From Cyanobacteriota bacterium (GTDB taxonomy: Bacteria; Cyanobacteriota; Cyanobacteriia; Cyanobacteriales; Nostocaceae), in assembly GCA_046045965.1 (NCBI GenBank), contig JBJOKS010000058.1, positions 1 through 14,403 on the forward strand: 14,403 bases of DNA, given 5' to 3'. Positions 1 to 14,403 of this stretch are shown here, one piece after another. Position 1 is the first letter of the stretch, and every line of letters starts with the position of its first letter. The notes under the pieces are model-generated. The model worked only from the letters and a program-made list of their open reading frames with translations. It ran no database searches and was not told the origin of the DNA. Both the position numbers and the translations under genes were made by a program.

Positions 1-2
1 TG

Positions 3-200
3 ATTCATTTCATAGCAATTTATTCAATTCTTCAAAATCTAGCTTTAGGAAATGATACTTTTAATATCCGGTTTGCTGGTGCAACTCCACAGAATCAATT
101 ATTTGGGACTAGAGGTAGTTTAAACTCCAGGATTATATCTCTGGCCTTTCCATTTAGCAGCGGTAATGATGTTGTAGGTGATAGTGATAATTTGGGATAA
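3..200 (+). CDS. 3' end of a hypothetical protein, 5'-truncated by the window
   Basis: Frame 3 is open from the window start to TAA 198-200 (IHFIAIYSILQNLALG...DSDNLG*). It is co-oriented with the next ORF and 6 nt upstream of it. Confidence 0.6.
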   Translation: MHFIAIYSILQNLALGNDTFNIRFAGATPQNQLFGTRGSLNSRIISLAFPFSSGNDVVGDSDNLG

Positions 201-206
201 CCAGTA

Positions 207-773
207 GTGACTACATATTGTAATCCCGGTGATACCGCTCGCGTAACCTTTCCAGATGGGAGTGTTAGAGATTTCAGTAACACTCCCATTGATATATCAG
301 TAGGTGAAGACTACCCTATTTGTCCTACCTATACGGTAAATGTTAGTTACACACAGGTCAGGTCTGACGGATTTGTACAGAATGGAGTTCGTCTTGGACG
401 GCGTTTACCTGTTAGAGCTTATGTCACGGGTGATAATTCTCAGTCTTATATAGTTGATACAGTTTGTTCGGGTGGACAACCAACTGGTGAACGATTTGCA
501 TTGTTAACCGCTGGTTCTCCTGGCGTGATAAGAAGTTTGGTAATTACTGGAATTACGAATAGTCTAACAGCAGCACCAGTGACACCTACTTATAGAATTA
601 CCGTCACATCCGATGGGACTAATCTTTTTACTGGTAGTTTCAATAATCCCAATTATTCAGTCGAATGCATCACAAGTTGCCCACCAAACACACTAGATTG
701 TGGCGATTGCTGCTTAGACTGCGAAGATATTTTTTATAAACTTTGTAACATAAACCAATTATTTATAGGGTAA
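207..773 (+). CDS. Hypothetical protein, beta-rich with Cys-rich C-terminus; possible virion protein
   Basis: 188-aa ORF with GTG start, T/V/G-rich, ending CPPNTLDCGDCCLDC; tight operon spacing. Confidence 0.7.
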   Translation: MTTYCNPGDTARVTFPDGSVRDFSNTPIDISVGEDYPICPTYTVNVSYTQVRSDGFVQNGVRLGRRLPVRAYVTGDNSQSYIVDTVCSGGQPTGERFALLTAGSPGVIRSLVITGITNSLTAAPVTPTYRITVTSDGTNLFTGSFNNPNYSVECITSCPPNTLDCGDCCLDCEDIFYKLCNINQLFIG

Positions 774-779
774 TATATC

Positions 780-2612
780 ATGACAACTTGTAGCCAAATT
801 AATAATGAATTAGGAGCAATAAGTAGTAGTGCAAATAGCATAAGTGCGAAATTAGATAATATTTTAACCCAGAATAACGATATATTAAATAGAATTGGCG
901 GTATAGAATCTAGGTTAGGTGCTATTGAAAGTAGATTGAATGGTTTTGATAGTAAACTTGATGCTATAAATAATTTAATAGATAGTTTAGAGAACATTAT
1001 TGTTACCGCAATAAATAATTTAGGTAATACATTACGTACCTTGATTAGTGAATTGATTGATCTCATAAGAAGTATATTTGGACGTAATAATAATGATAAA
1101 ATTGACGAAATATTAAGTGAAATAAGACGAGCCGGCGAATTTATTATTGATGCAATCAGAATAGTTGGTAGGGAAGTAGTTTTAGGTAGAGACGCTATTC
1201 TTGAAGCGATAAAAAATTGCTGTAACAGAATAGAAGGTTTAATGAGAGAATTTAGAATAGATGGTAAAATACAAGAAATAATAGAAGAAATTAATCGTAG
1301 TGAAGGCTCTATAAAAGAATCTATAGGAGGTTCTGAAATTAGAATTATAAGACAAATAGATCAAAACGAAGGTAAACTAGATATTATAATCAGCAAAATA
1401 GATGGTTTAAATGGTACAGATGATTGGGTAACAAGAATATTATCAGCCATAGCAGGAGTAGCAGCAATATTAAATTTATTAAAAGATAATCAATGTGATA
1501 ATCAAAAAGTGATTGAGCGCATTGATGGTTGTTGCAGTCATTTGTCCAGTCTAATAGTTCAAATTAATTATACTTCTCAATTAACAGCTATATCAAACAA
1601 ACTAGATAGTAACACTACAATTTTAAATACCATCAACTCTACTACATTTTCTATAACAAACGCAGTCAATAATGTATCTAATCAAATTTCTAGGAACACT
1701 ACAATTTTAAATACCATCAACTCTACTACATTTTCTATAACAAACGCAGTCAATAATGTATCTAATCAAATTTCTAGGAACACTACAATTTTAAATACCA
1801 TCAACTCCACTACATTTTCTATAACAAACGCAGTCAATAATGTATCTAATCAAATTTCTGGCAACACTACAATTTTAAATACCATTAACTCTACTACATT
1901 TTCCACATCAAACGCTGACATAAACAATACATTATCGAATATAATCAATAGGACTTTATCTATACAAAATTCTATTGAAAACATCGAATGCAATGGAAGT
2001 GAACCGGTAGAAGTAGAGCTTGTTCAAATTAAAGTTCCGGTATTCGTCGAATGTGAGGGTAATGAACCAAAATTTGATGAAACAGACATATATGTACAAA
2101 AAGGACTAGAAGAAACAGAATTATTAAAGTTTACAAGAATAGCAGAAATTGAGGGAAAACAATGTAGAGAAGCTGTAGCAGTAATTCCTGAATGGTGGCA
2201 GGTTCGGCTAGAAGGTGGTGTACCTCAATTAGTTCTTGCTTGGGGGGAAGTAGATGCTAGTTCTGGAAAATGTTTGCATTCAAAATATGCAATGACAATT
2301 CCCCACTTTATCAACATCCGACCTGAGTCTTGTCCATTTCCAAGATACAGAAAAGGAAATTATGAGCTAATAGCTTATTTTAAAGACAATAGTAAGTTAA
2401 TAATTAACGCTTTCACCGAACATGAATGTGAAAGAGTGTATAACTCTATTCTTCCCTGGATTGATCAAGAATATGCAAGTTCTGTTAGATACAAAGTAGG
2501 CAAGCGGGTTAGTTACCAGTTTAAAGAGGTTTGGGTATGTCCTAAATTTGGGAAATATTTTTCACAGGGGAATAGAGACACAAACCCCGACTGGACAGTG
2601 TACTTTAATTAA
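780..2612 (+). CDS. Long coiled-coil protein with 28-aa internal repeats and a globular C-terminal domain; possible fibre, spike or tape-measure-like protein
   Basis: 610-aa ORF with heptad I/L pattern over ~400 aa and a C-terminal domain (VIPEWWQVRLEGG...). Function is inferred only. Confidence 0.8.
   Translation: MTTCSQINNELGAISSSANSISAKLDNILTQNNDILNRIGGIESRLGAIESRLNGFDSKLDAINNLIDSLENIIVTAINNLGNTLRTLISELIDLIRSIFGRNNNDKIDEILSEIRRAGEFIIDAIRIVGREVVLGRDAILEAIKNCCNRIEGLMREFRIDGKIQEIIEEINRSEGSIKESIGGSEIRIIRQIDQNEGKLDIIISKIDGLNGTDDWVTRILSAIAGVAAILNLLKDNQCDNQKVIERIDGCCSHLSSLIVQINYTSQLTAISNKLDSNTTILNTINSTTFSITNAVNNVSNQISRNTTILNTINSTTFSITNAVNNVSNQISRNTTILNTINSTTFSITNAVNNVSNQISGNTTILNTINSTTFSTSNADINNTLSNIINRTLSIQNSIENIECNGSEPVEVELVQIKVPVFVECEGNEPKFDETDIYVQKGLEETELLKFTRIAEIEGKQCREAVAVIPEWWQVRLEGGVPQLVLAWGEVDASSGKCLHSKYAMTIPHFINIRPESCPFPRYRKGNYELIAYFKDNSKLIINAFTEHECERVYNSILPWIDQEYASSVRYKVGKRVSYQFKEVWVCPKFGKYFSQGNRDTNPDWTVYFN
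1611..1903 (+). repeat. In-frame 84-bp tandem repeat, ~3.5 copies
   Basis: Units start at 1611, 1695, 1779 and 1863 (partial) and encode NTTILNTINSTTFSITNAVNNVSNQIS(R/G); near-identical at DNA level. Confidence 0.97.
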
Positions 2613-2728
2613 CACTCGATCCAGCGCCAGGGCTTAAGTCCCGGCAGTAGTCTAGTGTATGTCCTGATGCACACAAAAATATTGCCAACTTAAGATATTC
2701 ATAAATCTAATCAACAAAAAGGTATTTT

Positions 2729-2986
2729 ATGACTGCAAAAATTGCCGGTGCTGATTTAACCACGTTCAGCGCATTAAATAGTTTAGAACAACAACTTATG
2801 TTCCTTGCAGGTATGCTATTAACAGAACAGAATTCTTATAATGTAGCTAACCCAACTGCACCCAGAAACGTCGTCGCAATTGCTCCAGCGTATGCTACTC
2901 GAACTGCCACCCTACAATGTCAGTTCACTATAGAATCTGACTCGGTTTTGCAAAGCCTTCATGAAAATATAACTCCTGCTTTTTAG
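2729..2986 (+). CDS. Small hypothetical protein (85 aa)
   Basis: ATG preceded by AAAAGGT; co-oriented within the + strand block. Confidence 0.75.
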   Translation: MTAKIAGADLTTFSALNSLEQQLMFLAGMLLTEQNSYNVANPTAPRNVVAIAPAYATRTATLQCQFTIESDSVLQSLHENITPAF

Positions 2987-3004
2987 TAATAAAAAATAAT
3001 TATT

Positions 3005-3565
3005 ATGGCATCACCTCAACGTCCATTAACTGGAGTACGACTCACTTATGAGTTAACGATGGGAACCGTAAAATACAGAGTAAGGATCAAGGAATCCATT
3101 GGCAAATGGTTAGGACTACGCCCCGTTGGACCACAAACAGGAACATTTGCAAGTGGTCCGAATTCTGGTAGGCGATTTTTACGAGCGCCGGCTGGTTTTA
3201 AATTCCAAAGCTTTACTTTCCTACTTCGTCCTGGAGTAACAATAACAGAGCCTATTCCTGGTGACTGCACAGGAGGAACCAGAAGTAGAGAAATATGTAC
3301 ATTTACTCTGGGATTTCCTCGCGGTCTTAAAGAAACACCTATTAACAGGTGGCGTGTTGAATCTTGGGCGCGAGGCACAACACGCGCAAATGACATAATC
3401 GGAATGATTACACCGTCGGGAGTTAAACACGTATGGCGTGAATCCCTAGCAGGTCAGACTGGAATACTCCCAAATGGATTACCCAACCTTCCTTCATTGC
3501 CCGATGGTTTTGATCTTGGTGATGTAATAGGACTAACTGGATCAATCCTCCCGTTACTGTTTTAA
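3005..3565 (+). CDS. Hypothetical protein (186 aa), basic, Gly/Pro-rich with hydrophobic C-terminal tail
   Basis: ORF 18 nt after the previous stop and followed by a long inverted repeat. Confidence 0.75.
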   Translation: MASPQRPLTGVRLTYELTMGTVKYRVRIKESIGKWLGLRPVGPQTGTFASGPNSGRRFLRAPAGFKFQSFTFLLRPGVTITEPIPGDCTGGTRSREICTFTLGFPRGLKETPINRWRVESWARGTTRANDIIGMITPSGVKHVWRESLAGQTGILPNGLPNLPSLPDGFDLGDVIGLTGSILPLLF

Positions 3566-3567
3566 TG

Positions 3568-3612
3568 TTTAGTTAAAAAGCTAAGTAACAAACCTCTAGC
3601 TTTTTAACTAAA
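3568..3612. terminator. 16-bp perfect inverted repeat; possible terminator or protein-binding site
   Basis: TTTAGTTAAAAAGCTA (3568-3583) and TAGCTTTTTAACTAAA (3597-3612) with a 13-nt loop, directly after the stop codon. Confidence 0.55.
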
Positions 3613-3666
3613 ACTATGACTAACTATAATTCCATTTAACAGATAAAACAGATAAAACAGATAAAA

Positions 3667-4032
3667 ATGACAAAAAATGTTATTAAAAAATCGGATTATG
3701 AATTTACAATTTCATTTTCAGATTTACCTGATGAACTGAACCTGAACTTTAAACCATTGGTCGAATCTTTTAATTTACATCTTCTTTACAATAAATTTGT
3801 ACTTTGTCACTGGCAAGCTCGTCCTAAAGGTTTAAGAGGATTTGGCTGGTATGATTTCTTGTCTAAAAAGTATTATTCTATTGATTGGAATAATATTAAA
3901 GTTGAATCAAAATCAATTCCTATTCAGGTAAATGAAATTGAATTTCCCACGGCTTTACCTTCCGCGGTATTGCTTTTCCCTGACTCTTATTTAGTAAAAA
4001 AAACCAACTACTGGAAGCTAACAGATGAGTAG
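3667..4032 (+). CDS. Hypothetical protein (121 aa)
   Basis: ORF overlapping the next gene by 8 nt; TATAAT at 3625-3630 upstream. Confidence 0.7.
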   Translation: MTKNVIKKSDYEFTISFSDLPDELNLNFKPLVESFNLHLLYNKFVLCHWQARPKGLRGFGWYDFLSKKYYSIDWNNIKVESKSIPIQVNEIEFPTALPSAVLLFPDSYLVKKTNYWKLTDE

Positions 4033-4498
4033 GATTTTGGACTTTAAAAATCCTCTAAACTTTTCTTTGGTTTATACTCAAAGCTTACAAGCAGTACCAA
4101 TCAGATCCGCTACAGGAGCAATTATTGATTATTTTCCAATAACAGAAATTATTATCCCTATTATATTTAACAGACCTGTGTGTGCGGTAAATGTAACGAC
4201 TGCTGTACCAGTAGGTAGGATTTGGCGCTATGCAGGAAAGGTAAGCAGAATATTTGACTTTGCTCTAGGTGAAGCATTTTCTGCTGATGAGAGAAAGCAT
4301 TTATTTTTAGGAAGATGGAACATCTGCTTATTTGACAGAATTTTACCTAATGACTACAGGATTGCATATTTACCACCACGGTGGTTTATTAATGTAAATG
4401 TTTCTGTTTACCAATATGAAGGAGTTATTGGAGATACTTTAGAAAATGATATTGCTGCTATTAAAAATTCTTTAAATTTACTATTACCAAATGAATGA
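4025..4498 (+). CDS. Hypothetical beta-rich protein (157 aa)
   Basis: Coupled overlaps with both neighbours (ATGA overlap at 4495-4498). Confidence 0.75.
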   Translation: MSRILDFKNPLNFSLVYTQSLQAVPIRSATGAIIDYFPITEIIIPIIFNRPVCAVNVTTAVPVGRIWRYAGKVSRIFDFALGEAFSADERKHLFLGRWNICLFDRILPNDYRIAYLPPRWFINVNVSVYQYEGVIGDTLENDIAAIKNSLNLLLPNE

Positions 4499-4746
4499 AA
4501 ATGGTTATTACTCAAGAGAAGATGGAATTTGTTGTTTTACTCTTAACAATATTTGGATCTTTCTACAAGCTTACACAAATTGAAAGTCGAATCAAGGAAA
4601 GCATTAAAGAAGTTCAAAAGGCCATTGAACTTCATGTTAAAGATAATGAACTGCTGATTTATCAGGTCAGGGAATTGCAATCAATTTTAAACGACCAACA
4701 AAAAATTCTGAAAAATAGTGGTTTGTTGCGTCGGGAAACAGATTAA
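4495..4746 (+). CDS. Small membrane protein with one TM helix and a coiled coil; holin-like candidate
   Basis: Hydrophobic FVVLLLTIFGSFY followed by a charged heptad segment; last gene before the terminator. Confidence 0.65.
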   Translation: MKMVITQEKMEFVVLLLTIFGSFYKLTQIESRIKESIKEVQKAIELHVKDNELLIYQVRELQSILNDQQKILKNSGLLRRETD

Positions 4747-4827
4747 TGGTATATTTGTACTTGCGGTGCTGTCATGAACTGGAAAAGGTTAACCAGCGCC
4801 GTACTATCCCGATAAGCACAAAAATCC

Positions 4828-4862
4828 AAAAACTCCCCCGGCGCGTGAGGGAGTTTTTTTTT
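4828..4862. terminator. Bidirectional intrinsic terminator between convergent gene blocks
   Basis: AAAAACTCCC (4828-4837) and GGGAGTTTTT (4849-4858), with a T run on + and an A run upstream. Confidence 0.85.
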
Positions 4863-4865
4863 ATT

Positions 4866-4893
4866 GAGTCAGGGGTCAGGAGTCAGGAGGCAG
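4866..4893. repeat. Heptameric STRR-type repeat (GAGTCAG-like x4)
   Basis: GAGTCAG GGGTCAG GAGTCAG GAGGCAG. The same family occurs at 11161-11180, and AGGTGAC x3 at 12221-12241. Such repeats are typical of heterocystous cyanobacteria. Confidence 0.8.
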
Positions 4894-5487
4894 TAACTGA
4901 TAAACTAGCTTATTTCCATTTATGCCAAACCCGCCCCTGATGAAATTTTCAATTTTATGGGGGGATATACCCAGTGCAATCGCCTTCTCAATCATCAACT
5001 TTCTTTCCAGTGCGATCGCATTTTCATGATTTCCCCCAGGAATATGAACATGATGAATTCGCTTGTCATAGTAACAGTAGCGGTAGTACCAATGTCTAGT
5101 TCCGTTGCGAGTTACATAATATTCCTCTACCCATTGAGTTTTTCTTTGTTCTGGAAGTGGGTAAGGTTTTTTTGGGTAGTCCTGTTTTTCTTGTTCTGGA
5201 AGTGCTGAAACTCTTATTTCTTCATCTTCCAGAACACTCATTGCCCGGACATTTACATCTGGGTGCAACTGCTCCCAATCAGTCCAGGAGCGGCCATAAC
5301 TTTCCTGATCAGGATAGTCATTTGGATCTGGTGGTTCCTCGCTGCTGTCATAGAAAAGCGTGGACTGACCATTCTCCTCAACTTTTCCAGAACAATCTAA
5401 AACTATCTCATCCCAATACGGGTCTACATCTCTAGCTCTAGATGGTAATGAGGTGAATTCATCTAAATTAAATAATGTTCCGGTCAT
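4876..5487 (-). CDS. Hypothetical protein: acidic N-terminus, basic/aromatic C-terminal domain, possibly DNA-binding
   Basis: Start re-placed to ATG 5487 (MTGTLFNL...), which has a GAGGAGG SD and an ATGA overlap with the upstream small ORF. C-terminal motif WVEEYYVTRNGTRHWYYRYCY...HVHIPGG. Confidence 0.75.
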   Translation of the reverse strand: MTGTLFNLDEFTSLPSRARDVDPYWDEIVLDCSGKVEENGQSTLFYDSSEEPPDPNDYPDQESYGRSWTDWEQLHPDVNVRAMSVLEDEEIRVSALPEQEKQDYPKKPYPLPEQRKTQWVEEYYVTRNGTRHWYYRYCYYDKRIHHVHIPGGNHENAIALERKLMIEKAIALGISPHKIENFIRGGFGINGNKLVYQLLPPDS

Positions 5488-5660
5488 GACCCCTCCTCTA
5501 TTGGTGTGGGGGGAATTGAGTAATGAGGGCATGGGGAATAATAGCCATTGGCAAGGTGAAGGTAAAAACTACCATCACAGTAAATGGCAAATGGCAAATA
5601 ATTAATGGCAACTTCCCGCTCTTTAATAAAGCCGTTGTTGTTGTATAAGCGTACTTTCAT
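5484..5660 (-). CDS. Small hypothetical protein (58 aa), not in the ORF track
   Basis: Hand translation MKVRLYNNNGFIKEREVAINYLPFAIYCDGSFYLHLANGYYSPCPHYSIPPTPIEEGS*. It fills the gap in the - strand operon and its stop overlaps the next ATG. Confidence 0.6.
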   Translation of the reverse strand: MKVRLYNNNGFIKEREVAINYLPFAIYCDGSFYLHLANGYYSPCPHYSIPPTPIEEGS

Positions 5661-5697
5661 GGTTGGTAAACACTTGGTAAACGGTTACTAATTAAAT

Positions 5698-6357
5698 TCA
5701 AAAATAATCCTGTACTTCCATCACAACACCACCAAAATGCTGACAGATAGAAACATAATTAGTGGGTTGTTCCCAGTAGCGCCGTCTTAAACAACAGCGA
5801 ACCCATCCTTCTGGATTAATAATTTTTTCAGCAGCGCCGCGAAGTTTAAATAACAGCAGGGCGGCTTTAATTTCAAACTGTGGACGGTTTAAAACTTCTG
5901 TTTCTTCAGTGTCAAAATGAATACCCTCCTGAGACATCAACTGTTGATTAGATAAGATATGCTGCTGCTGAACATCAGCATTAACGGAATTATCAGGGTT
6001 TGGATTGGGTGTTTTGTAAGTAGAGTTAGGATTGTGTAATTTTTGTTTTTTAGGTGGTGTTAACCATTCCAATGGTCTAACTACTAACTTAAATATCTTC
6101 CAGGAATACTGTTTAATAACTTGTATTACACGATTTTCTGCTAACAAGTTAAACATCCGTTTCAGGTAATTGTGAGCGTAGCTCTTACCTCTATGTTTTT
6201 TCACCCATTCGTTAAATTTTGATAAGTCTGGTTCTACTTCCTCTTCAATTCCTTCTCTGATCAGCCACTGCCATAAAAGTTTTGCAGCTGGTGGAATTTT
6301 GTTTTTTAGACAGAATTGATCATGTTTTTCTGTCCATTCTGTTGATGTTTTTGGCAT
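5698..6357 (-). CDS. Putative replication initiator-like protein (winged-helix N-terminus, linker, C-terminal helical domain)
   Basis: IPPAAKLLWQWL N-terminus, low-complexity P/N/Q linker and C-terminal IINPEGWVRCCLRRRYW, resembling phage/plasmid replication organizers. Recognised by pattern only. Confidence 0.55.
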   Translation of the reverse strand: MPKTSTEWTEKHDQFCLKNKIPPAAKLLWQWLIREGIEEEVEPDLSKFNEWVKKHRGKSYAHNYLKRMFNLLAENRVIQVIKQYSWKIFKLVVRPLEWLTPPKKQKLHNPNSTYKTPNPNPDNSVNADVQQQHILSNQQLMSQEGIHFDTEETEVLNRPQFEIKAALLLFKLRGAAEKIINPEGWVRCCLRRRYWEQPTNYVSICQHFGGVVMEVQDYF

Positions 6358-6465
6358 AATGTATAAATGACCACCCCTCTCTGGTGGTATTCAAGTTTTT
6401 AAATACAGGAATCTGTCACCACCTAGCGCGTAGGTGGTTGGAATGTTGAGGCTGGATTTTAGATT

Positions 6466-6732
6466 TTAGGGTTTGGGCGGAGCAAAACTATCTGGTAGGT
6501 CCTGGATAGCCTTGCCGTGAGATTTCAAAAGTTTGTCTAGTGCCTTGAGTTGGGGAATTGTAAAGGATGGAACATTAACTCCAGCCTCCCATCGGCTAAC
6601 AGTTCTTAAACTTACGCCAATAGTTCTGCCAAATTCCTCCTGACTCATGCCAAGCTCGTCTCTAAGGTGTGCCAAGGGTGATTTGCCCCCATTTTGACTT
6701 TCCGGTTTTTGATCGTTAGGTGTTTTATTCAT
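6466..6732 (-). CDS. XRE/Cro-CI family helix-turn-helix transcriptional regulator (likely repressor)
   Basis: LAHLRDELGMSQEEFGRTIGVSLRTVSRWEAGVNVP is a canonical HTH_3 motif. Start re-placed to ATG 6732 because the upstream part overlaps the promoter/operator region. Confidence 0.9.
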   Translation of the reverse strand: MNKTPNDQKPESQNGGKSPLAHLRDELGMSQEEFGRTIGVSLRTVSRWEAGVNVPSFTIPQLKALDKLLKSHGKAIQDLPDSFAPPKP

Positions 6733-6740
6733 TATAACCT

Positions 6741-6797
6741 GCCATGACATCATGGCATGACCTATTGACATAAATCAAGTAGTCATGACATAATGAC
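6741..6797. promoter_or_regulatory. Divergent overlapping promoters with two palindromic operators
   Basis: Operators GCCATGA-CA-TCATGGC (6741-6756) and GTCAT-GACATA-ATGAC (6782-6797). Rightward promoter: TTGACA 6765-6770, 18 bp, extended -10 TGaCATAAT ending 6794. Leftward promoter: TTGATT (6778-6773), 18 bp, CATGAT (6754-6749). Confidence 0.75.
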
Positions 6798-6800
6798 GTA

Positions 6801-7292
6801 TGTGAGACAACAAGAATCCAACCGAGTTGGAAACCCGGTAGATGGTAAGCACTTGGTTGGATGATTGAAAGTCTCTCACTTTCGAGAACGACCTGACACG
6901 GGGATGATGCTGTATCATTCCCGTGACCGCTCCCTCCTCTCCTTTGCCTTGTGCCTGAGAGGACACACCATACTAAGTCGGAGCAAGCACCCACGCATTT
7001 TTGACTGCGAGTGTCCGCGCGTGGAACCAACCCCCAGCACACAGATGAATTGCGCGTCCCCATTAATTTGGGGACTTTTCCTCTCATGTCTGCAATCTAT
7101 AAACTGATTGCATATATCAACATACTTATTTTTCAGAGAGTTTGGAGGTGATGCTAGACGACAATCAACATAAACATGATCTGAAGTGAACTGCTTTCCC
7201 GTTTCTCCCACGGGAAGTAATTACAATATTTTGCATTTATGACGCTTCTGTTCCAAGTCAATATTAGCTGGTGGTTAATATTGACTTTTTCT
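6801..7292 (+). ncRNA. Candidate long structured ncRNA or leader RNA
   Basis: About ten consecutive hairpins, several with G-U pairs only on the + strand, between the promoter and a terminator-like stem; no convincing CDS. Confidence 0.5.
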
Positions 7293-7293
7293 T
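7255..7293 (+). terminator. Intrinsic terminator or attenuator
   Basis: AAGTCAATATTAGC pairs with GTTAATATTGACTT (one G-U), running into TTTTTCTT. Confidence 0.65.
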
Positions 7294-7343
7294 AACGATG
7301 ACATCCCTTTTGACCGCAGCACATCCGAAGGAGGTGATTTTTG

Positions 7344-7550
7344 ATGAAGCTTCTCAAACTTCCCAGTGGTGACTATATCAATTTAGAATTAGCTTGCACT
7401 GTAGAATTTGGTACTTTTCCTGACGGAAGTGGTGTCTCGCACCAAAGATGCAAAATTTTTTGGAGTGACAACAACTCTGATGTTTATTGCGACAATGTAG
7501 CAATTTTTATCAAAGACTATCTTGATAAAAATCATGATAGTTTGAATTAG
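7344..7550 (+). CDS. Small hypothetical protein (68 aa)
   Basis: Strong SD AAGGAGGT at 7328-7335 and ATG at 7344; ends 14 nt before the ribozyme. Confidence 0.75.
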   Translation: MKLLKLPSGDYINLELACTVEFGTFPDGSGVSHQRCKIFWSDNNSDVYCDNVAIFIKDYLDKNHDSLN

Positions 7551-7564
7551 ATCACTATAATCAA

Positions 7565-7650
7565 CCGCCTGACGATACGACTAACTTATAGTCGGCTACC
7601 TGGACCCGGTAGCCGAAACACACCCCGCGGTGTGTCGCGGATTGGGTCCA
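7565..7650 (+). ncRNA. Type I hammerhead ribozyme with pseudoknot and an extra inserted hairpin
   Basis: Stem I CCGC 7565-7568/GCGG 7637-7640; core CUGACGA 7569-7575; stem II GGCUACC 7594-7600/GGUAGCC 7608-7614; GAAA 7615-7618; stem III CACACC 7619-7624/GGUGUG 7629-7634; GUC cleavage triplet, cut after C7636. Loop II UGGACCC 7601-7607 pairs with GGGUCCA 7644-7650. Confidence 0.88.
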
Positions 7651-7805
7651 AACCAATCTTGCAAACTGCAAAAGTAACTTAAGGCTTTAAAAGAGAATTA
7701 AGCTCTTTGGCTTTTTTCCATTCGTAAGCTTGGTTGCTTTTGCTGCTTTGAGGCTGAATCAGGCTGATTAATTTCTGGCCTTTGGGTGATTCGTAAGCGT
7801 AACTT
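7637..7805 (+). ncRNA. IS110 bridge RNA with target-binding and donor-binding loops; ends approximate
   Basis: Two parallel internal loops of form GCUUU-N10-hairpin-...AUUC-GUAAGC (7684-7729, 7745-7798). Segment 7751-7759 equals junction 9005-9013, and 7716-7723 is the reverse complement of junction 9010-9017. Confidence 0.82.
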
Positions 7806-7829
7806 TAGTTCACACCCTTTACAAATTAT

Positions 7830-9011
7830 ATGAGAATAGTTGGTTTAGATGTCTCTAAATCATCGGTTTCGTGTTGCCTTTTAACAGAAAAACCGAGTGA
7901 TGTTAGAGAATTTTATTATGACTGCAAGTTTTACCACTTCCAGAACAACCAAGAGGGTATTTCTGGAATGCTGGCATTAAAGCCAGATGTGGCAATTCTT
8001 GAACCAACCGGGGTCAATTACTCCAAATTCTGGACTCAACTTCTGACCCGTGCTGGAGTAGAAATTAGATTAGTAGGACATAAGGAATTGCGGCGCTATC
8101 GGGAAAACCATTTACAGTTACCAGATAAAGACGACGATGCTGATTCACTGGCCATAGCTTGCTACTACTTTGATTACTGTGGCGATCGCTCTCGATGGGT
8201 GAGAGTTTTAGACCCGGTGGTTTCCAGAATCAGGGAATTAATCTTGAGATTGAACCATCTAAGTAAGGTTCAGTCCCCAATTATTAACCGTGCTAGACAG
8301 GATTTAGCTTGGCAGTTTCCAGAAGTAGCATTGGTTAATTCTCAGCGTGGTGTTTCTGGGAACGTACCTTTGCTTTGGGGATGGTTGGCAGGAGAAAGGC
8401 AAAGTACAAAATATGATCGACTTTACTCCCAAACCGCCGGCGTGGGATTAACTGATTCGGTAAAGTTTCACTCGCAGCGCATTTGTTCTTTACAGAGAGA
8501 GGAACAATTAATTGAGGATGAGTTGGCTGTATTGCTAAAGGACGCTAGGTTTGAAAAATATATACAAGTGTTTGAAGAATTTAAATTTGGCGATCGCCTT
8601 CAGGCTACTATCCTTAGTCAAATTTTCCCACTAGAAAACTTTTTTGGTGAAGATGGTAAACCAGTGGTAAAAATTCGTAAGGGTAGGATTTCTGGAAAAC
8701 CTACCAAAAGATACTTGAGCTTGAGACGATTTCAGAAGGCGTTAGGATACGCACCTACTCAAGAATCATCTGGGGATATTTCCAAAAATAAAGTATCTGG
8801 TGGGAGTGCTGTTTGTAGAAAAGCAATCTGGCAGTGGGTATTTAGCAGTGTTGAACCCGCCCGCCGTCGTTCCAATCCACTGGTCAAAGAGTTGGGTAAC
8901 TGGCTTGATCAGGAAAAGAAAGCAGGTGTACCAGTGGCATTGGTCAGGAGCAGAACGGCAGTAAAAGCTGTTAAGCTCTTATTTAAAAAACTGGTAAATT
9001 TCTTAGGCTGA
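7830..9011 (+). CDS. IS110-family DEDD recombinase/transposase
   Basis: N-terminal RuvC-like motifs GLDVSK, ILEPTG and KDDDADS, a coiled-coil middle, and a C-terminal Tnp domain with GYAPTQESSG (catalytic Ser region); intact 393 aa. Confidence 0.95.
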   Translation: MRIVGLDVSKSSVSCCLLTEKPSDVREFYYDCKFYHFQNNQEGISGMLALKPDVAILEPTGVNYSKFWTQLLTRAGVEIRLVGHKELRRYRENHLQLPDKDDDADSLAIACYYFDYCGDRSRWVRVLDPVVSRIRELILRLNHLSKVQSPIINRARQDLAWQFPEVALVNSQRGVSGNVPLLWGWLAGERQSTKYDRLYSQTAGVGLTDSVKFHSQRICSLQREEQLIEDELAVLLKDARFEKYIQVFEEFKFGDRLQATILSQIFPLENFFGEDGKPVVKIRKGRISGKPTKRYLSLRRFQKALGYAPTQESSGDISKNKVSGGSAVCRKAIWQWVFSSVEPARRRSNPLVKELGNWLDQEKKAGVPVALVRSRTAVKAVKLLFKKLVNFLG

Positions 9012-9389
9012 ATGGAAGACTATCGAGATAGGTTAGTTGTCATTGTCGCTGGTTATAGTGAAGAAATGTCGCAGTTTATTAATACTAATCCTGGGTTACA
9101 ATCGAGATTTAATAGATACTTTTATTTCGATGACTATAAACCAGAAGAACTATTAAATATTTTTGCAGGAATATGTAAGCAACAACATTATAGAATCACC
9201 CCACGAGGTCAAGAAAAATTATTGCAACAGTTTACCAAATTGTATAATGAAAAAGATAATAGTTTTGGAAATGGTAGACTTGTCAGAAATATGTTTGAGA
9301 AAATAATTGAAAGACAAGCTAACAGATTGGTGAAAATCAATGCTATTAACAAAGAAATGATGATGACTATTACCTGGGAGGATGTTTAA
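9012..9389 (+). pseudogene. 3' portion of an interrupted SpoVK/CbbX-family AAA+ ATPase gene
   Basis: MEDYRDRLVVIVAGY...NPGLQSRF...FGNGRLVRNMFEK matches the post-Walker-B and lid region. Walker A/B are absent because the sequence is fused directly to the recombinase stop. Confidence 0.88.
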
Positions 9390-9654
9390 TAACTTATCAA
9401 AAATATCACTGAATTGTTAAAAAGAGTCGGGAATATTATGCTATATTAAAATAGTATCTATTCTAAAAAACAAAAGACTGCTTGTTGCTCATGATATGCC
9501 AGCTGTTTTTTGGCCTCACAAATGAGCTGGCTGATGAGTTTCCCAGGGATTCCTTCAATTGACTCCCCTCCAATGATAGGGGTATTTGATTCGTGGCTAT
9601 CTTTTCTACCAGTTCTGATCTGGTAAGTCCCATCCCTTTGGTGGGTTTTTCATT

Positions 9655-9882
9655 AAATAAAGTATCTGGTGGTAGCACTGTCTGTAGAAAGGCGATATGG
9701 CAATGGGTTTTTGCCGCTGTGGAGCCAAAGCGCCGCCGCACTAATTTACTGGTGAAAGAGTTGGGGGAATGGTTGGATCAGGAAAAATCCACAGGTAAGC
9801 CGGTGACATTGGTGAGAAGTCGAACCGCAGTAAAAGCTGTTAAGCTCTTGTTTAAAAAATTGGTAAATCTTTTAGACTGAAT
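9655..9882 (+). pseudogene. 3' remnant of a second, paralogous IS110 recombinase
   Basis: Aligns without gaps to 8786-9013 (offset 869); 61 of 74 aa identical by hand count; also ends ...CTGAAT. Confidence 0.92.
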
Positions 9883-11138: not shown

Positions 11139-11411
11139 TAAGGCTGACATTAGTAAGAATTCAGGAGTCAGGAGTCAGAATATTGGATAAATCAGTAGAT
11201 TATCAATATGTGATTTTTAGTCTCATCCTTAAAAAGCTGATTACTGATAGCTGAATCCTAATTTAATGTTTTGATCTGAACCGACAAGTATTGCCTCACA
11301 TTTTGCAATTAACCTCACAACTTCCTCACAAACTAGCTCTAAATTTTAAATAAATCTGGTGTTTTGCGTAGTATCGACAAATATCAAACTAGGCTAAGTT
11401 GTGAGGTAGTA

Positions 11412-12233
11412 ATGAGTGCATCACCATCAAGCCAAAAACCCCATTGTGCCTTAGTTTATGGTCCAGTAAAATCTTGGCGATTTGGGCGATCGCTCGGGAT
11501 CGATCCTATAGGGATAATATCTACCTGTTCCTTTAACTGTATCTATTGTCAGTTAGGGAATATTCAACAACAAACAACTCAACGGCAAATTTTTGTCCCT
11601 ACTAGCCAAATTATCTCGGAACTGCAAGCGATCGCACCTAGAGAAATACCGTTAGATGTAGTAACTATTAGTGGCAGTGGTGAACCTACCCTAGCACTGA
11701 ATTTAGAAGAAATTATCGCAGCTACAAAAGAAATCTTTAAACAACCAAAAGTAGTATTAACTAATAGCACCTTGTTAGGTGATCCATTAGTCCGTAAAGC
11801 CTTATCACTAGCTGATATTGTCGCAGTTAAATTGGATGCTGTTTCGTCAAATCAACTACTGCAAATTAATCGACCTCTAGAGACAATTGATTTACCAGAT
11901 ATTATTAAGGGAATTACACAATTTAGACAGGAATATCAGGGAAGGATGGCAATACAAACCATGATTTTGTCTTCCTGGACAGCACAAACCCAAGCCTATT
12001 ACATCCATTTGCTCAAAGTTCTCCAACCTGATGAAATACAACTTAACATTCCTTCCCGTCCCCGTGTCCTAGTTAGTCAGTTAGAATCCAGAGGTAATGA
12101 CATTGCTGAATCTCGCGCCTATACTTGTGAAAATTTCAAATTGCTCACTTTTGAAGAACTCAGTGCTATGGCACAAAAAATTCACAATGTTACTAAAATT
12201 CCTGTGCGTTATCCCATACTAGGTGACAGGTGA
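11412..12233 (+). CDS. Radical SAM protein (Fe-S oxidoreductase, Tyw1-like)
   Basis: YGPVKSWRFGRSLGID, CSFNCIYC (CxxxCxxC) and SGSGEPTL; ATG 11412 follows GAGG. Confidence 0.9.
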   Translation: MSASPSSQKPHCALVYGPVKSWRFGRSLGIDPIGIISTCSFNCIYCQLGNIQQQTTQRQIFVPTSQIISELQAIAPREIPLDVVTISGSGEPTLALNLEEIIAATKEIFKQPKVVLTNSTLLGDPLVRKALSLADIVAVKLDAVSSNQLLQINRPLETIDLPDIIKGITQFRQEYQGRMAIQTMILSSWTAQTQAYYIHLLKVLQPDEIQLNIPSRPRVLVSQLESRGNDIAESRAYTCENFKLLTFEELSAMAQKIHNVTKIPVRYPILGDR

Positions 12234-12279
12234 CAGGTGACGAGTATGTCAATGTTGTATTTTTAAGGAGTTAAGAAAA

Positions 12280-12903
12280 ATGACGACAACATCAACTGAA
12301 ATCTTATCAACATCCACAGAAATTCCCGCTGGCTATCTGAATATTATGGGTTATGTTGATAAATCAGAAGTTAATGGTCCTGGTTGTCGAGCGGTGGTTT
12401 GGGTACAAGGTTGTCCTCGTGAGTGCGAAGGTTGTTTTAATCCCGACTCTTGGACTTTTGAAATTAACAAGTTAGTTTCTATTGATCAATTAGCTGAAGA
12501 TATTATCAAAAACCCTGAAAATACAGGTGTAACTTTCTCCGGTGGTGAACCATTTTGGCAAGCATCCGCATTAGCTAGTTTAGCACGTAAGGTTAAAGCT
12601 GCCGGTTTAAATGTCATGGCTTTTACTGGTTTTACTCTCAAGCAATTACAATCTGAATCAGCACCTCCTGGATCTCAGGAATTGTTAGCAGAATTAGATA
12701 TTTTAATTGATGGTCCTTTTGTCCAGTCTCAAGCAATAAATTCTCCTTTGTCTCCTGTTTCTTCTAAAAATCAACAAGTTCATGTTTTTAACCCAGAATT
12801 TAAAGATCAAATTAGTTGGGCCAGTGATCAAATAGAAGTTCATGTTCTCAAAGATGGCGATCGCATTGTCACCGGTTATCAAGGTTGGTTAGAATTAACC
12901 TAA
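12280..12903 (+). CDS. Radical SAM protein, NrdG/organic radical activating enzyme-like
   Basis: NGPGCRAVVWVQGCPRECEGCFNP, TFSGGEPF and DILIDGPF; SD AAGGAG. Confidence 0.9.
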   Translation: MTTTSTEILSTSTEIPAGYLNIMGYVDKSEVNGPGCRAVVWVQGCPRECEGCFNPDSWTFEINKLVSIDQLAEDIIKNPENTGVTFSGGEPFWQASALASLARKVKAAGLNVMAFTGFTLKQLQSESAPPGSQELLAELDILIDGPFVQSQAINSPLSPVSSKNQQVHVFNPEFKDQISWASDQIEVHVLKDGDRIVTGYQGWLELT

Positions 12904-12932
12904 GTCAATTATCAGTTATGATTTTTAGTATT

Positions 12933-12956
12933 GGGAGCATCTAGCTCCCCTTTTTT
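12933..12956 (+). terminator. Intrinsic terminator
   Basis: GGGAGC-ATCTA-GCTCCC followed by C and T6. Confidence 0.75.
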
Positions 12957-13057
12957 ATATAACAACCCTCTGGGAAAAATATATTTATTAATACTTGGTT
13001 AATTTATGTTATAATCTTCACATCTTCATTTATGAAACTTCAATTATTCCCGCTTTT

Positions 13058-14403
13058 ATGAAACGTCTTTACTACGGTGATAATCTCCAAGTTCTCAGAG
13101 ATAAAATCCCTAATGAATCTATTGATTTAATTTACCTTGATCCGCCTTTTAATTCTAAATCTAATTATAATATTCTCTTTAAAAATGCCACTGGGGAAAA
13201 ATCAGAAGCGCAAATTACAGCTTTTGAAGATACCTGGATTTGGGGAATTGAATCAGAAAGATTTTTAGATGAAATCCAAGATCAAAAAGGAGAATTATAT
13301 CAGTTATTAGATTTATTAGTCAGAACATTAGGTAAAAATTCATTATCAGCTTATTTGGTAATGATGGCAATTAGATTAATAGAATTACATCGAGTTCTGA
13401 AATCTACAGGCAGTTTATATTTACATTGTGATACTACAGCCAGTCATTATTTAAAAATGATTTTAGACTTAATATTTGATGCTAGAAATTATCGTAACCA
13501 AATTACTTGGAAACGAACTAGCAGTCATAGCGATGCTAAAAAATATGCAAGAATTACAGATATTATTTTCTACTATGTCAAATCTAATGAATTTACATGG
13601 AATCCTCAACGCTTGAGTTATTCTGAAGAATATATCAAACAATATTATTGTAATATTGATAGCGACGGTAGAAGATTTCAATTTGATAATTTAACAAACC
13701 CAAAAACAAGCAAAGGTTATTTTTATAAATTGTTAAATTGTGATCCTCCTGAGAATGGTTGGAGAATGCCGGAATCTCGCGCCGAAGAGTGGCTAAGTCA
13801 AGGTAAAATTGCGATACCACCAACAGGGAAAACACCACGTTATAAACGTTATTTAGATGAGGTTCAAGGTAAAGTTATTCCCGATATTTGGGATGATATA
13901 CCGCCTATTAATTCTCAAGCTAAGGAAGCTTTAGGATATCCTACCCAAAAACCTTTAACATTATTAGAAAGAATCATTCAAATTAGTAGTCATCAAGATG
14001 ATATTATTCTTGATCCATTTTGTGGATGTGGAACAGCAATACACGCAGCGGAAAATTTAGGCAGAAATTGGATGGGGATTGATATTACTCATTTAGCAAT
14101 TTCTTTAATAGAAAAAAGATTAAGAGACGCTTTTCCGAGCAAATTTATTGAAGATGAAAACAAAAATCAAAAATTAGTACCAGGGATAGAATTTGAAGTT
14201 GAAGGTACACCCAAAGATTTAGCCGCAGCAATAGATTTATTTAATAGAGATGCTTATCAATTTCAATGGTGGGCTTGTTCTTTAGTCAATGCACAACCAT
14301 ATAAAGATAAAAAGAAAGGTGCAGATGGGGGAATTGATGGTTTAATCTTTTTTGAAGATGTCATAGATATCAAAAAATCAAATAAAACCGCAGTGAAAAA
14401 AAT
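13058..14403 (+). CDS. Beta-class N6-adenine/N4-cytosine DNA methyltransferase, probably fused to a C-terminal Mrr-like endonuclease domain; 3'-truncated by the window
   Basis: Hand translation from ATG 13058: MKRLYYGDNL...IDLIYLDPPFNS (motif IV), GYPTQKP, ILDPFCGCGT (motif I), then FQWWACSLV...KKGADGGIDG. Absent from the ORF track because no stop lies in the window. Confidence 0.9.
   Translation, partial: MKRLYYGDNLQVLRDKIPNESIDLIYLDPPFNSKSNYNILFKNATGEKSEAQITAFEDTWIWGIESERFLDEIQDQKGELYQLLDLLVRTLGKNSLSAYLVMMAIRLIELHRVLKSTGSLYLHCDTTASHYLKMILDLIFDARNYRNQITWKRTSSHSDAKKYARITDIIFYYVKSNEFTWNPQRLSYSEEYIKQYYCNIDSDGRRFQFDNLTNPKTSKGYFYKLLNCDPPENGWRMPESRAEEWLSQGKIAIPPTGKTPRYKRYLDEVQGKVIPDIWDDIPPINSQAKEALGYPTQKPLTLLERIIQISSHQDDIILDPFCGCGTAIHAAENLGRNWMGIDITHLAISLIEKRLRDAFPSKFIEDENKNQKLVPGIEFEVEGTPKDLAAAIDLFNRDAYQFQWWACSLVNAQPYKDKKKGADGGIDGLIFFEDVIDIKKSNKTAVKK

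Follow-up and report, generated by a model that had tools for sequence, protein, structure and literature searches.

Insertion sequences (IS) of the IS110 family normally measure 1.2–1.6 kb. In IS621 and the IS110 family, the non-coding RNA (ncRNA) that guides the recombinase is transcribed from a promoter that is reconstituted where the ends of the circular form meet (Durrant et al., 2024, PMC11208160). Larger loci have been described as well: the preprint of Hu, Xie, Yang and Rubin (bioRxiv 10.64898/2026.08.14.744561, August 2026) reports cargo-bearing IS110 loci of up to ~100 kb, amongst them a 9,177-bp locus that circularises, and a size continuum arising through progressive accretion, mostly of plasmid DNA and resistance genes, along which the mobility of the whole unit falls with size; a term search of its main text returned no mention of cyanobacteria, prophages or ribozymes. 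In addition, the filamentous proviruses Nf/MDA of Neisseria (PMC7058167, citing Kawai et al., 2005) and phiOH16/Zuza of Thermus (PMC11437467) carry an IS110-family transposase gene at one end, for which the available text of the two papers describes no RNA guides. Since cargo-bearing IS110 loci and IS110-carrying filamentous proviruses have both been reported, the general idea of an IS110-family enzyme moving a large unit is not new. Here we analyse a 14,403-nt stretch of cyanobacterial DNA (the entire contig C58:1–14403, referred to as the window) from a genome of 5.29 Mb in 107 contigs, and conclude, with a probability of roughly 85%, that its left part belongs to one integrative element of ~9.6 kb, with a divergent bridge recombinase of the IS110 type as its integrase and a bridge RNA of its own as the guide of this enzyme.

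By recombinase similarity the closest named relatives of this genome are Anabaena, Trichormus and Sphaerospermopsis, and sequence comparison supports the assignment of the element to a lineage of 7.8–15.5 kb phage-derived elements of heterocystous cyanobacteria (Nostocales). As in the loci of the Hu et al. preprint, an IS110 recombinase and a bridge RNA are combined with multi-kilobase cargo, and complementarity between guides and flanks serves as the test; unlike what is described there, the phage-like genes form a conserved, syntenic set that goes with one recombinase clade in many Nostocales genera, and one genome (G024) holds two near-identical 15.5-kb copies. Like the Neisseria and Thermus proviruses, as these are described, the element is virus-sized and bears a terminal IS110-family gene thought to integrate and excise it. 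In contrast to the filamentous proviruses, its cargo resembles genes of tailed double-stranded DNA phages (a collagen tail fibre and a GH108 endolysin in relatives), and the Pfam and PHROG scans of the window returned no inovirus genes (Zot-like assembly ATPase, rolling-circle Rep).

The split AAA ATPase gene and the recombinase

The right-hand side of the element is defined by the following features.

7830–9011, plus strand: divergent IS110-family (DEDD) bridge recombinase, 393 aa (Pfam PF01548 and PF02371; fold match)
9005–9012, plus strand: element right end AGGCTGAA, overlapping the recombinase stop codon, with the core GAA at 9010–9012; identical to the left donor guide at 7751–7758
From 9012, plus strand: AAA_lid_6 fragment directly after the recombinase stop codon (Pfam E 1.7e-21)
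9013–9389, plus strand: 3' half of the interrupted host AAA ATPase gene, beginning with the right target TGGAAGAC... (AAA_lid_6, E 1.7e-21; 91–93% identical to the intact gene of same-genus relatives)

The open reading frame (ORF) of the recombinase ends with the stop codon TGA at 9009–9011, at the junction with the 3' half of the AAA gene. In all four relatives examined the AAA allele is contiguous, reading AAAGAGAATGGAAGA (L042, L044) or AAAAAGAATGGAAGA (L043, L045) across the empty site, and the intact gene of the same-genus relative L042 spans it as ...TTATTAAAGAGAATGGAAGACTATCGAGAT... As the site is uninterrupted in these relatives, the gene of the genome under study is truly split, exactly at the end of the recombinase ORF. 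Neither the 5' half of the AAA gene nor a left junction was found in window positions 1–7829, where the sole occurrence of AAAGAGAAT is the guide within the ncRNA (7690–7698). A search of the whole genome with the gene of a relative located the 5' half, 94% identical, on the minus strand of contig C46 (C46:1121–478). There it ends in ...AAAGAGAA, or, given in longer context, in ...TTATTAAAGAGAAT followed by CCCCAATCAC...; after ...AAAGAGAAT the contig runs CCCCAATCACAAAGC... for 477 nt up to its end. This tail encodes a tyrosine recombinase and is not the upstream region of the IS110-type recombinase. The left junction on C46 is ...AAAGA-GAA|TCCCCAATCAC, the right junction in the window ...AGGCT-GAA|TGGAAGAC. 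Apart from GAA(T), which is present on both sides, the two halves of the AAA gene add up without loss or duplication, so that a single insertion, with its left end in the C46 tail and its right end at the recombinase gene, is the simplest reading.

The insert is estimated at ~9.6 kb, made up of window 1–9012, ~0.6 kb on C46 and a short gap. C46:1–459 encodes residues 37–189 of the tyrosine recombinase; by comparison with the homologous 193-aa protein of G002, the gap between C46:1 and window base 1 would be ~100 nt, and window bases 8–1, on the minus strand, could provide the start codon of this gene. Contig C58 and a second contig of the genome, C93, start with the same 127-mer, which indicates that the assembly broke at a repeat present in two copies. 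A contig of a public sequencing run (X4) extends 891 nt to the left of window base 1.

Much of this had been anticipated in an earlier note, made from the letters of the window. Its observation that the recombinase ends exactly at a truncated host gene and its statement that the 5' half of that gene is missing from the preceding 7.8 kb both hold, and the halves bound an insert of the size class it proposed (more than 9 kb). The two checks it suggested, a leftward extension, carried out through other contigs and genomes as the window is a whole contig, and a comparison with empty alleles, gave the results described above. Its prediction of the other end was right in the target half, found letter for letter on C46 (AAAGAGAA), and one base off in the CACC(C) that should follow: the literal complement of the right donor guide is TCACCC, the actual left end TCCCCA.

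The recombinase itself is recognised by PF01548 (DEDD_Tnp_IS110; 31.5 bits, cut-off 29), with PF02371 (Transposase_20) in the C-terminal part at 19.7 bits (cut-off 21.3). Unlike IS621, it is too divergent to be matched by sequence to solved structures: searches of the PDB with the single protein and with a 32-sequence profile gave no match. An AlphaFold model computed from the alignment (pLDDT 88.3, pTM 0.78) points to the same family by fold, its ten best PDB matches being bridge-recombinase complexes of IS621 and ISCro4 (8WT6, 8WT9, 9T56; E 4e-9 to 1e-7), followed by Nop5-type proteins, TasR and RuvC. All of these are the relatives expected from the published work available. The model aligns over its full length with IS621 chains (~398 columns, TM by target 0.41–0.56). 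In total, 186 relatives of the recombinase were found. In an alignment of 32 homologues including the window protein, D7, D101 and D105 show no variation and the conservation of E58 is at least 90%; by position only, we take these four to be the DEDD residues. S297 and S314 are both invariant in the same alignment and are candidate catalytic serines.

To the right of the element the locus has a history of its own. Homology to the AAA locus of relatives stops at window position 9477, and 9655–9882 is a solo 3'-end remnant of a related recombinase gene; a second such remnant lies at C3:217090–217156 of the same genome (G000), and they are 78–85% identical. Both end in AGACTGAA and abut unrelated DNA, and they look like older insertions whose left parts have been lost. 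In the window, the end of the remnant coincides exactly with the point (~9879–9882) from which the sequence is homologous to the hydroxylase locus of relatives. Relatives of the same genus have the AAA gene and the hydroxylase/SDR gene on separate contigs, at a distance of ~880 kb in G018, which means that the region right of the element has itself been rearranged, with one break point inside the old remnant.

The bridge RNA, its guides and the family-wide test

Upstream regions of the recombinase gene were aligned, first for seven elements and then for 78 (the window and 77 loci from a scan of the genome collection). A bridge RNA is conserved in 77 of the 78, L088 being without it. Its first module contains two short hypervariable segments amid conserved surroundings, while the counterparts of these segments in the second module are nearly constant. 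The consensus structure of 74 sequences comprises 41 pairs, 20 of them with compensatory changes, and the fold of the window RNA has three domains, namely a hairpin at the 5' end and two long stems with interruptions (z -4.04). Rfam scans of the whole window, of 7450–7850 and, at gathering score, of seven related loci returned no bridge-RNA or ribozyme family.

7637–7800, plus strand: bridge RNA (to ~7800, the 3' end not being defined), from the alignment of upstream regions, covariation and the match of its guides to the junctions
7637–7658, plus strand: 5' stem-loop of the bridge RNA
7689–7697, plus strand: left target guide AAAAGAGAA; its last 8 bases (AAAGAGAA) are identical to the left target half
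7716–7723, plus strand: right target guide TTCCATTC; its reverse complement, GAATGGAA, comprises the core and the right target half
7750–7758, plus strand: left donor guide GAGGCTGAA; its last 8 bases (AGGCTGAA) are identical to the right end at 9005–9012
7784–7792, plus strand: right donor guide GGGTGATTC; complementary to the left-end GAA-TC-CCCA if one base bulges

The two target guides lie within the target-binding loop, with the donor guides in the donor-binding loop. A GAA/TTC motif occurs in all four guides, and being common to them it should hold the core. The pairing between right end and left donor guide is the same in all seven elements first compared. Both junctions and both target halves thus match the guide loops of the adjacent bridge RNA, which supports the central proposal of the earlier note, a bridge recombinase acting as the integrase.

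As far as IS621 is described in PMC11208160, its strand logic is, on sequence grounds, also the one seen here: left guides carry the top-strand sequence, right guides are complementary to it, and the core is present in all four. Further likenesses are the DEDD recombinase fold, an ncRNA that combines a 5' stem-loop with two internal loops, the core at both junctions, and target guides that vary while donor guides are conserved. The differences are equally plain. IS621 measures ~1.3 kb as opposed to 7.8–15.5 kb here; the conserved core-containing motif is GAA and not the CT dinucleotide described for IS621; the RNA and the recombinase gene sit at the right end with the left end remote (~6.5–14 kb), so that no junction-rebuilt promoter can drive the RNA; the left end comprises ~6 nt (TCCCCA) and pairs with a bulge; and a hammerhead ribozyme motif precedes the RNA.

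In order to assess the guide rules beyond a single locus, the 73 of the 78 upstream regions with parsable guides of standard length were used. For 60 of these 73 loci, exactly one exact copy of the locus's own 8-nt left donor guide occurs 1.1–2.3 kb downstream of the recombinase start, and the right end so defined lies in some elements several hundred bases beyond the recombinase stop codon. The five bases after the right end agree with the prediction of the right target guide at all five positions in 43 of the 60 loci, at four or more in 48 and at three or more in 50. When guides were permuted amongst loci (1000 permutations), full matches averaged 0.77 and never exceeded 4 of 60. Target guides are highly diverse, with 71 distinct pairs amongst the 73 loci, whereas one right donor guide is common to 70 of them. 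The left donor guide, which agrees exactly with the locus's own right end in 60 of 73, occurs mainly as AGAGTGAA (53 loci), AGACTGAA (11) and AGGCTGAA (2), and more rarely as AGAGTGAG (5), AGAATGAA (1) and AGAGTAAA (1). The two copies in G024 are 94–99% identical in their common parts and differ in their right target guides, each of which matches the flank of its own copy.

As a separate observation, four of five Nostocales genomes contain the 9-mer GAATCCCCA 3–7 times as often as the reversed control (86 vs 12 in one case); as this is far above the number of elements, some other repeat family contains it.

Left junctions were called where a 7–9/9 match to the left target guide is followed by TCCCCA, and both ends could be placed for seven elements.

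G024, two copies on two contigs: 15,498 bp
L076: 12,950 bp
L062: 11,689 bp
Plasmid of strain TIOX110: 10,139 bp
Genome under study: ~9.6 kb
L090: 7,831 bp

They span 7.8–15.5 kb, with the left end ~6.5–14 kb upstream of the RNA; the canonical compact layout of 1.2–1.6 kb with the RNA in the left end does not describe them (7,831–15,498 bp). Within 5 kb upstream of the RNA, no left junction followed by TCCCCA was found in the loci with at least 260 nt of upstream sequence. Past TCCCCA the left ends are unrelated, which limits the left end recognised by the RNA to only ~6 nt. Four further candidates were not counted: in L053 an exact 9/9 guide match is followed by TCCGTC, and in L063, L124 and L128 an 8/9 match is followed by TC, which is near chance, as we estimate that ~2 such candidates would be expected by chance over all loci. 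At window 5619–5631 the left target flank has an inverted match of 13 nt (E 0.057), which does not hold the core in the right register and was likewise taken as chance.

These junctions bear directly on the possibility that a stand-alone compact IS110 (~7553–9012) merely sits beside an unrelated prophage or island integrated by a tyrosine recombinase, the two having been joined by a later rearrangement. Such an IS would have the usual size of the family, 1.2–1.6 kb; a tyrosine-recombinase gene does abut the left junction on C46; ATCACT at 7551–7556 resembles the literal complement of the right donor guide; and the right-hand locus is rearranged, as seen from the remnant at 9655–9882 and from the AAA gene not lying beside the hydroxylase gene in relatives. 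However, the left target guide AAAAGAGAA matches nothing near 7550 and does match the C46 flank ~9.6 kb away, exactly where the right flank resumes. The same far-left junction, a guide match followed by TCCCCA, recurs in six further elements, the copies in G024 have the whole 15.5 kb between their ends in common at unrelated sites, and the tyrosine-recombinase gene is internal in 40 of 40 relatives, with only GAA(T) common to the two element ends. Because RNA-matching ends bound the whole element, we regard a compact IS beside an unrelated island as excluded, save for a very small residual probability, and read the locus as a single bridge-integrated element.

Ribozyme motif, cargo and tyrosine recombinase

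Three features precede the bridge RNA.

7255–7287, no strand assigned: palindrome with 15-bp arms, located where the repressor side and the rightward operon diverge; conserved in the copy on C93
7534–7561, plus strand: sigma-70-like promoter, ATGATA–16-nt spacer–TATAAT (10/12 consensus matches), directly upstream of the ribozyme
7564–7636, plus strand: predicted hammerhead ribozyme (stem I ACCGC/GCGG(A), core CUGACGA, extra hairpin, stem II, GAAA, stem III, GUC)

The motif 5' of the bridge RNA reads (A)CCGC-CUGANGA-hairpin-GAAA-hairpin-GUC, followed by GCGG. Cleavage is predicted after C7636, in which case G7637 would be the first base of the guide RNA. The full core motif (CUGANGA ... GAAA ... 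RUH + GCGR) is found in 62 of 77 related loci, and the hammerhead core columns are invariant in all 38 distinct aligned sequences. The specified three-stem structure leaves 95.8% of cells paired as compared to 74.4% in shuffles (0 of 500 shuffles as high), 126 cells are changed on both sides (29.8 in shuffles), and the covariation score is 0.552 vs at most 0.093 with slid partners. Compensatory changes occur in stems II and III, while stem I varies on one side only, and the minimum-free-energy fold of the window copy has the expected stems (z -3.64). The nearest Rfam model, RF03152 RAGATH-1-hammerhead, reaches 25.4 bits on L076 (gathering score 56.3; E 0.038 in a 401-nt search); Rfam returned nothing at E <= 10 on the ribozyme region of the window and nothing at gathering score on seven loci. 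With RF03152 the motif shares the invariant CUGANGA, GAAA and GUC and three stems with compensatory changes in II and III. It differs from known hammerheads in staying below every Rfam gathering cut-off, in often carrying an extra hairpin between core and stem II, a feature of the window copy that recurs in many relatives, and in its direct fusion to a bridge RNA that contributes its first four bases to stem I. A literature search for hammerheads with bridge RNA, IS110 or bridge recombinase found no paper linking them; one holds both, separately, in the text available. The promoter is a consensus match only (three such sites in the region vs 2.0 expected from shuffles), and the palindrome is operator-like or terminator-like in appearance.

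Public sequencing runs, which consist of assembled contigs in which depth is a poor measure, place the element in several freshwater metagenomes. In an RNA-library run (X5) a contig over 7667–7736 with the element's own guide letters has a depth of 312, other pieces of the element having at most 25, which hints at an abundant small RNA from this region. Run X1 contains a variant over the same positions (depth ~210) that differs mainly at guide positions, eight of the twelve listed differences falling in the target guides (7689, 7691, 7693, 7694, 7698; 7716, 7718, 7720); it would represent natural reprogramming within one habitat. X5 also holds a contig of a diverged relative that runs from the recombinase 3' end through GAAT into CCCCAAAAG... 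and looks like a joint between right and left end of a circle; for the 20-nt start of its continuation, the compared loci and the genome gave no match apart from two chance matches with three mismatches.

The gene layout of the window was established by ORF calling together with Pfam and PHROG scans of the encoded proteins.

1–206, no strand assigned: left contig edge, interior of the element; divergent region between the tyrosine-recombinase gene (continuing on C46) and the ORF at 207–773
207–4940, plus strand: block of ORFs that includes the 610-aa coiled-coil protein
207–773, plus strand: 188-aa cargo protein, family F09, function unassigned; homologues beside a large fibre-like gene in G002 and four other loci, no Pfam match
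780–2612, plus strand: 610-aa coiled-coil protein; weak PHROG tail matches (E 0.008–0.009), Pfam coiled-coil matches sub-threshold only
2729–4940, plus strand: six small co-directional ORFs (85, 186, 121, 157, 83 and 64 aa) with no Pfam or PHROG match, largely deleted in the copy on C93
Minus-strand block: the 218-aa and 219-aa proteins, the XRE-type helix-turn-helix protein (6466–6771) and two small ORFs
4876–5532, minus strand: 218-aa conserved core protein, family F01; only cyanobacterial hypothetical clusters in Atlas
5698–6357, minus strand: 219-aa conserved core protein, family F04; N-terminal winged-helix DNA-binding domain and helical C-terminal part
6466–6771, minus strand: XRE/Cro-C1-type helix-turn-helix repressor candidate (Pfam HTH_3, E 1.8e-10; PHROG transcriptional repressor/regulator families)
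7341–7550, plus strand: 69-aa ORF, family F21, directly upstream of the ncRNA, with a homologue at the same position in G003; followed by a 280-nt non-coding stretch upstream of the recombinase gene
Right of the AAA fragment: host genes for a fatty-acid hydroxylase/SDR fusion, two radical-SAM proteins and a DNA methylase

Gene families were clustered across elements and traced by tblastn over all loci, with counts given for the 39 loci whose upstream sequence extends over 7 kb or more. The order kept in relatives is a variable arm on the left, the tyrosine recombinase on the plus strand, F01 and F04 on the minus strand, the repressor region, small ORFs, the ribozyme, the guide RNA and the recombinase, so that homologues of the recombinase do co-occur with the same cargo, as the earlier note had suggested checking. 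F01 lies upstream of the recombinase in 29 of the 39 loci, always on the minus strand, F04, also on the minus strand, in 25, and the tyrosine recombinase is present in 36. The 125 homologues of F04 are all from cyanobacteria where the organism is named and all 'hypothetical protein' where a name is given. One of them weakly matches the PHROG 'replication initiation O-like' (lambda-O-like; E 5e-5); a fold search with a model (pLDDT 80) returned nothing at E <= 0.001 and, amongst its weaker matches, only winged-helix regulators. F04 may therefore be a replication initiator or a regulator, the former label remaining a lead. The left arm varies in content and length. Proteins of relatives at the position of the 610-aa protein are 900–1000 aa long, with collagen repeats and tail-fibre PHROG matches (E 8e-24 and 6e-56), and judging from the sequences the 610-aa protein is the counterpart of these large, variable tail-fibre-like proteins; its gene contains, at 1607–1915, ~3.7 tandem copies of an 84-bp (28-codon) unit, 92–96% identical. 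The left arm of G024 also holds an endolysin with GH108 and PG_binding_3 domains.

The sequences indicate that the cargo is phage-derived, a satellite and a novel small virus being equally open readings. The earlier note went further in speaking of a whole virus-like genome, and this part of it is not supported: capsid, portal, terminase and packaging ATPase were not found by Pfam or PHROGs in the elements of the window, G024, L076, L062 and L090, most ORFs of which have no match, a recombinase pattern search of IMG/VR gave no relative, and neither did tblastn with the 610-aa protein and the recombinase against 50,697 phage records. We accordingly give about even odds to a bridge-integrated unit whose cargo is non-viral, be it a helper-dependent satellite, a tail-fibre and lysis cassette, or an expanded IS110 with decayed prophage genes. 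These negative searches, the variable left arm, the size range of 7.8–15.5 kb and the accretion of plasmid and phage DNA by IS110 loci described in the Hu et al. preprint all fit such a cargo. On the other hand, a core gene order conserved across many genera argues for a functional, replicon-like unit and not for random accretion, a novel capsid could be missed where most cargo proteins are ORFans, and the repressor, the tail-fibre-like protein, the GH108 endolysin (in G024) and the candidate replication initiator form a phage-like set.

The tyrosine recombinase requires separate consideration. On C46 it is encoded on the strand opposite to the AAA half, with its stop codon 6 nt from the AAA junction, and its 193 aa consist of the catalytic domain only (PF00589 covers residues 22–182). 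In size it corresponds to small tyrosine-family invertases. The earlier note had held that a separate tyrosine integrase bounding the cargo would speak against its reading, and at first sight this is the arrangement on C46. In 40 of 40 relatives, however, the gene is internal and on the plus strand, and it adjoins the left end only in the genome under study, because the left arm is inverted there. Repeats of the att type are absent, the two element ends having only GAA(T) in common, and junctions that co-vary with RNA guides are not explicable by a tyrosine integrase. With low confidence, we assign to this protein a role in resolving multimers of a circular form or in inverting the left arm. 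A search for inverted repeats between the C46 tail and the window that could explain the inversion yielded nothing convincing. In relatives, no consistent left-end-like sites follow the tyrosine-recombinase stop codon.

Both copies in the genome have the inverted arm. The second, on contig C93 of G000 (5,755 bp, the whole contig), is a decayed cargo-plus-recombinase copy, collinear with the window and 88–97% identical, with large deletions in the cargo. In place of the ribozyme, the guide RNA and the first 33 recombinase codons it has 896 nt of different sequence, and its recombinase is truncated, with an internal TAA. It keeps the right end AGGCTGAA, beside a different flank, and the intact copy could in principle mobilise it in trans. 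The deletions that distinguish it appear as joints in two public runs.

It is conceivable, though we hold it to be rather unlikely, that the copy in the window is likewise a dead relic of a family perhaps active elsewhere. The left arm inverted in comparison with all 40 relatives would fit this, as would the extra ribozyme hairpin, the imperfect left end and the evident decay of C93, with its truncated, stop-containing recombinase, replaced RNA region and cargo deletions. Against it, the recombinase ORF is intact and has all family-invariant residues in the 32-sequence alignment, all four guides match the current junctions, the left end TCCCCA is the family consensus, and the extra hairpin is found in many relatives. 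Two copies with an inverted arm mean that the inverted form moved or was duplicated at least once, and the RNA-library signal covers the guide RNA.

Three observations concern the remainder of the window. The stretch 11364–14401 encodes the two radical-SAM proteins, the second with Fer4_12 (E 2e-39), and then an N6/N4 DNA methylase whose gene leaves the contig; C58 overlaps contig C62 by 127 nt. At 11149–11262, 3' of the hydroxylase gene, lies a short repeat of ~100 nt with copies on 19 other contigs of the genome and in relatives (72–100% identity over 30–118 nt), which looks like a family of the miniature inverted-repeat transposable element or repetitive extragenic palindrome type.

A model for mobility and its implications

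Several points weigh against reading the locus as a single mobile element with a bridge recombinase as its integrase. The join of C46 to the start of the window is by homology only, with a gap estimated at ~100 nt. The C-terminal catalytic domain of the recombinase scores below the Pfam cut-off, and the protein has no sequence match to solved bridge recombinases. Pairing of the right donor guide with the left end is imperfect, as it needs one bulge or two mismatches, and in the family-wide test fewer than three of the five predicted flank bases are seen in 10 of 60 loci, with no exact right-end match in 13 of 73. The ribozyme stays below the Rfam gathering score, and the window copy has the extra hairpin between core and stem II. 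The signal in the RNA run comes from assembled contigs, to which DNA carry-over may contribute. From the left end as far as the convergent stop codon of F01, the entire left arm is inverted in comparison with all 40 relatives, which could be the mark of a rearranged copy that has lost its mobility. The tyrosine recombinase is rarely missing and may have some part in integration. Finally, circularisation, excision, ribozyme cleavage and recombinase activity are all things we infer.

With these reservations, we propose the following course of events. The left end being kilobases away from the RNA and only ~6 nt long, the RNA would need a promoter and processing of its own. The internal promoter at 7534–7561, probably controlled by the XRE repressor, would transcribe the hammerhead ribozyme, the bridge RNA and the recombinase mRNA as one fusion, and the ribozyme would set the 5' end of the bridge RNA by cutting after C7636. 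Recombinase and RNA would then synapse the junction between right end and left end of the circular form with a 14-nt target (6 nt + GAA + 5 nt), strand exchange would take place at GAA, and the reverse reaction would excise the element. The tyrosine recombinase would not be the integrase and would most likely resolve multimers of the circular form or invert the left arm.

In the literature searched we found in print neither a conserved, multi-genus phage-like lineage on this recombinase clade nor a remote left end of ~6 nt, near-total diversity of target guides, a constant tyrosine-recombinase partner or a ribozyme fused to a guide RNA. On balance we lean slightly towards the view that these elements form an active family of 8–15 kb, virus-like or satellite, in heterocystous cyanobacteria, in which a self-contained, RNA-programmed integrase has taken the place of a fixed-site one, with eleven variable guide bases in each element, site-hopping by mutation of the RNA, a guide released by a ribozyme and a tyrosine recombinase serving the circle. 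If this is true, it would be a natural, ready-made case of RNA-programmed insertion of payloads of more than 15 kb with a donor site of ~14 nt, at a time when bridge recombinases are under development as programmable genome-writing tools. The lineage extends the role of a bridge recombinase beyond minimal insertion sequences to that of the integrase of a conserved 8–15 kb element. It indicates that a donor site can be as small as a few bases flanking the core on either side, and that a guide RNA can lie apart from the end of its element, with expression from an operon in the interior. The 5' end of this RNA may be set by a hammerhead ribozyme, which is unreported in the literature searched. 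For the cyanobacteria, these elements represent a widespread, previously unannotated family of mobile elements, with simple sequence rules for their ends and insertion sites.

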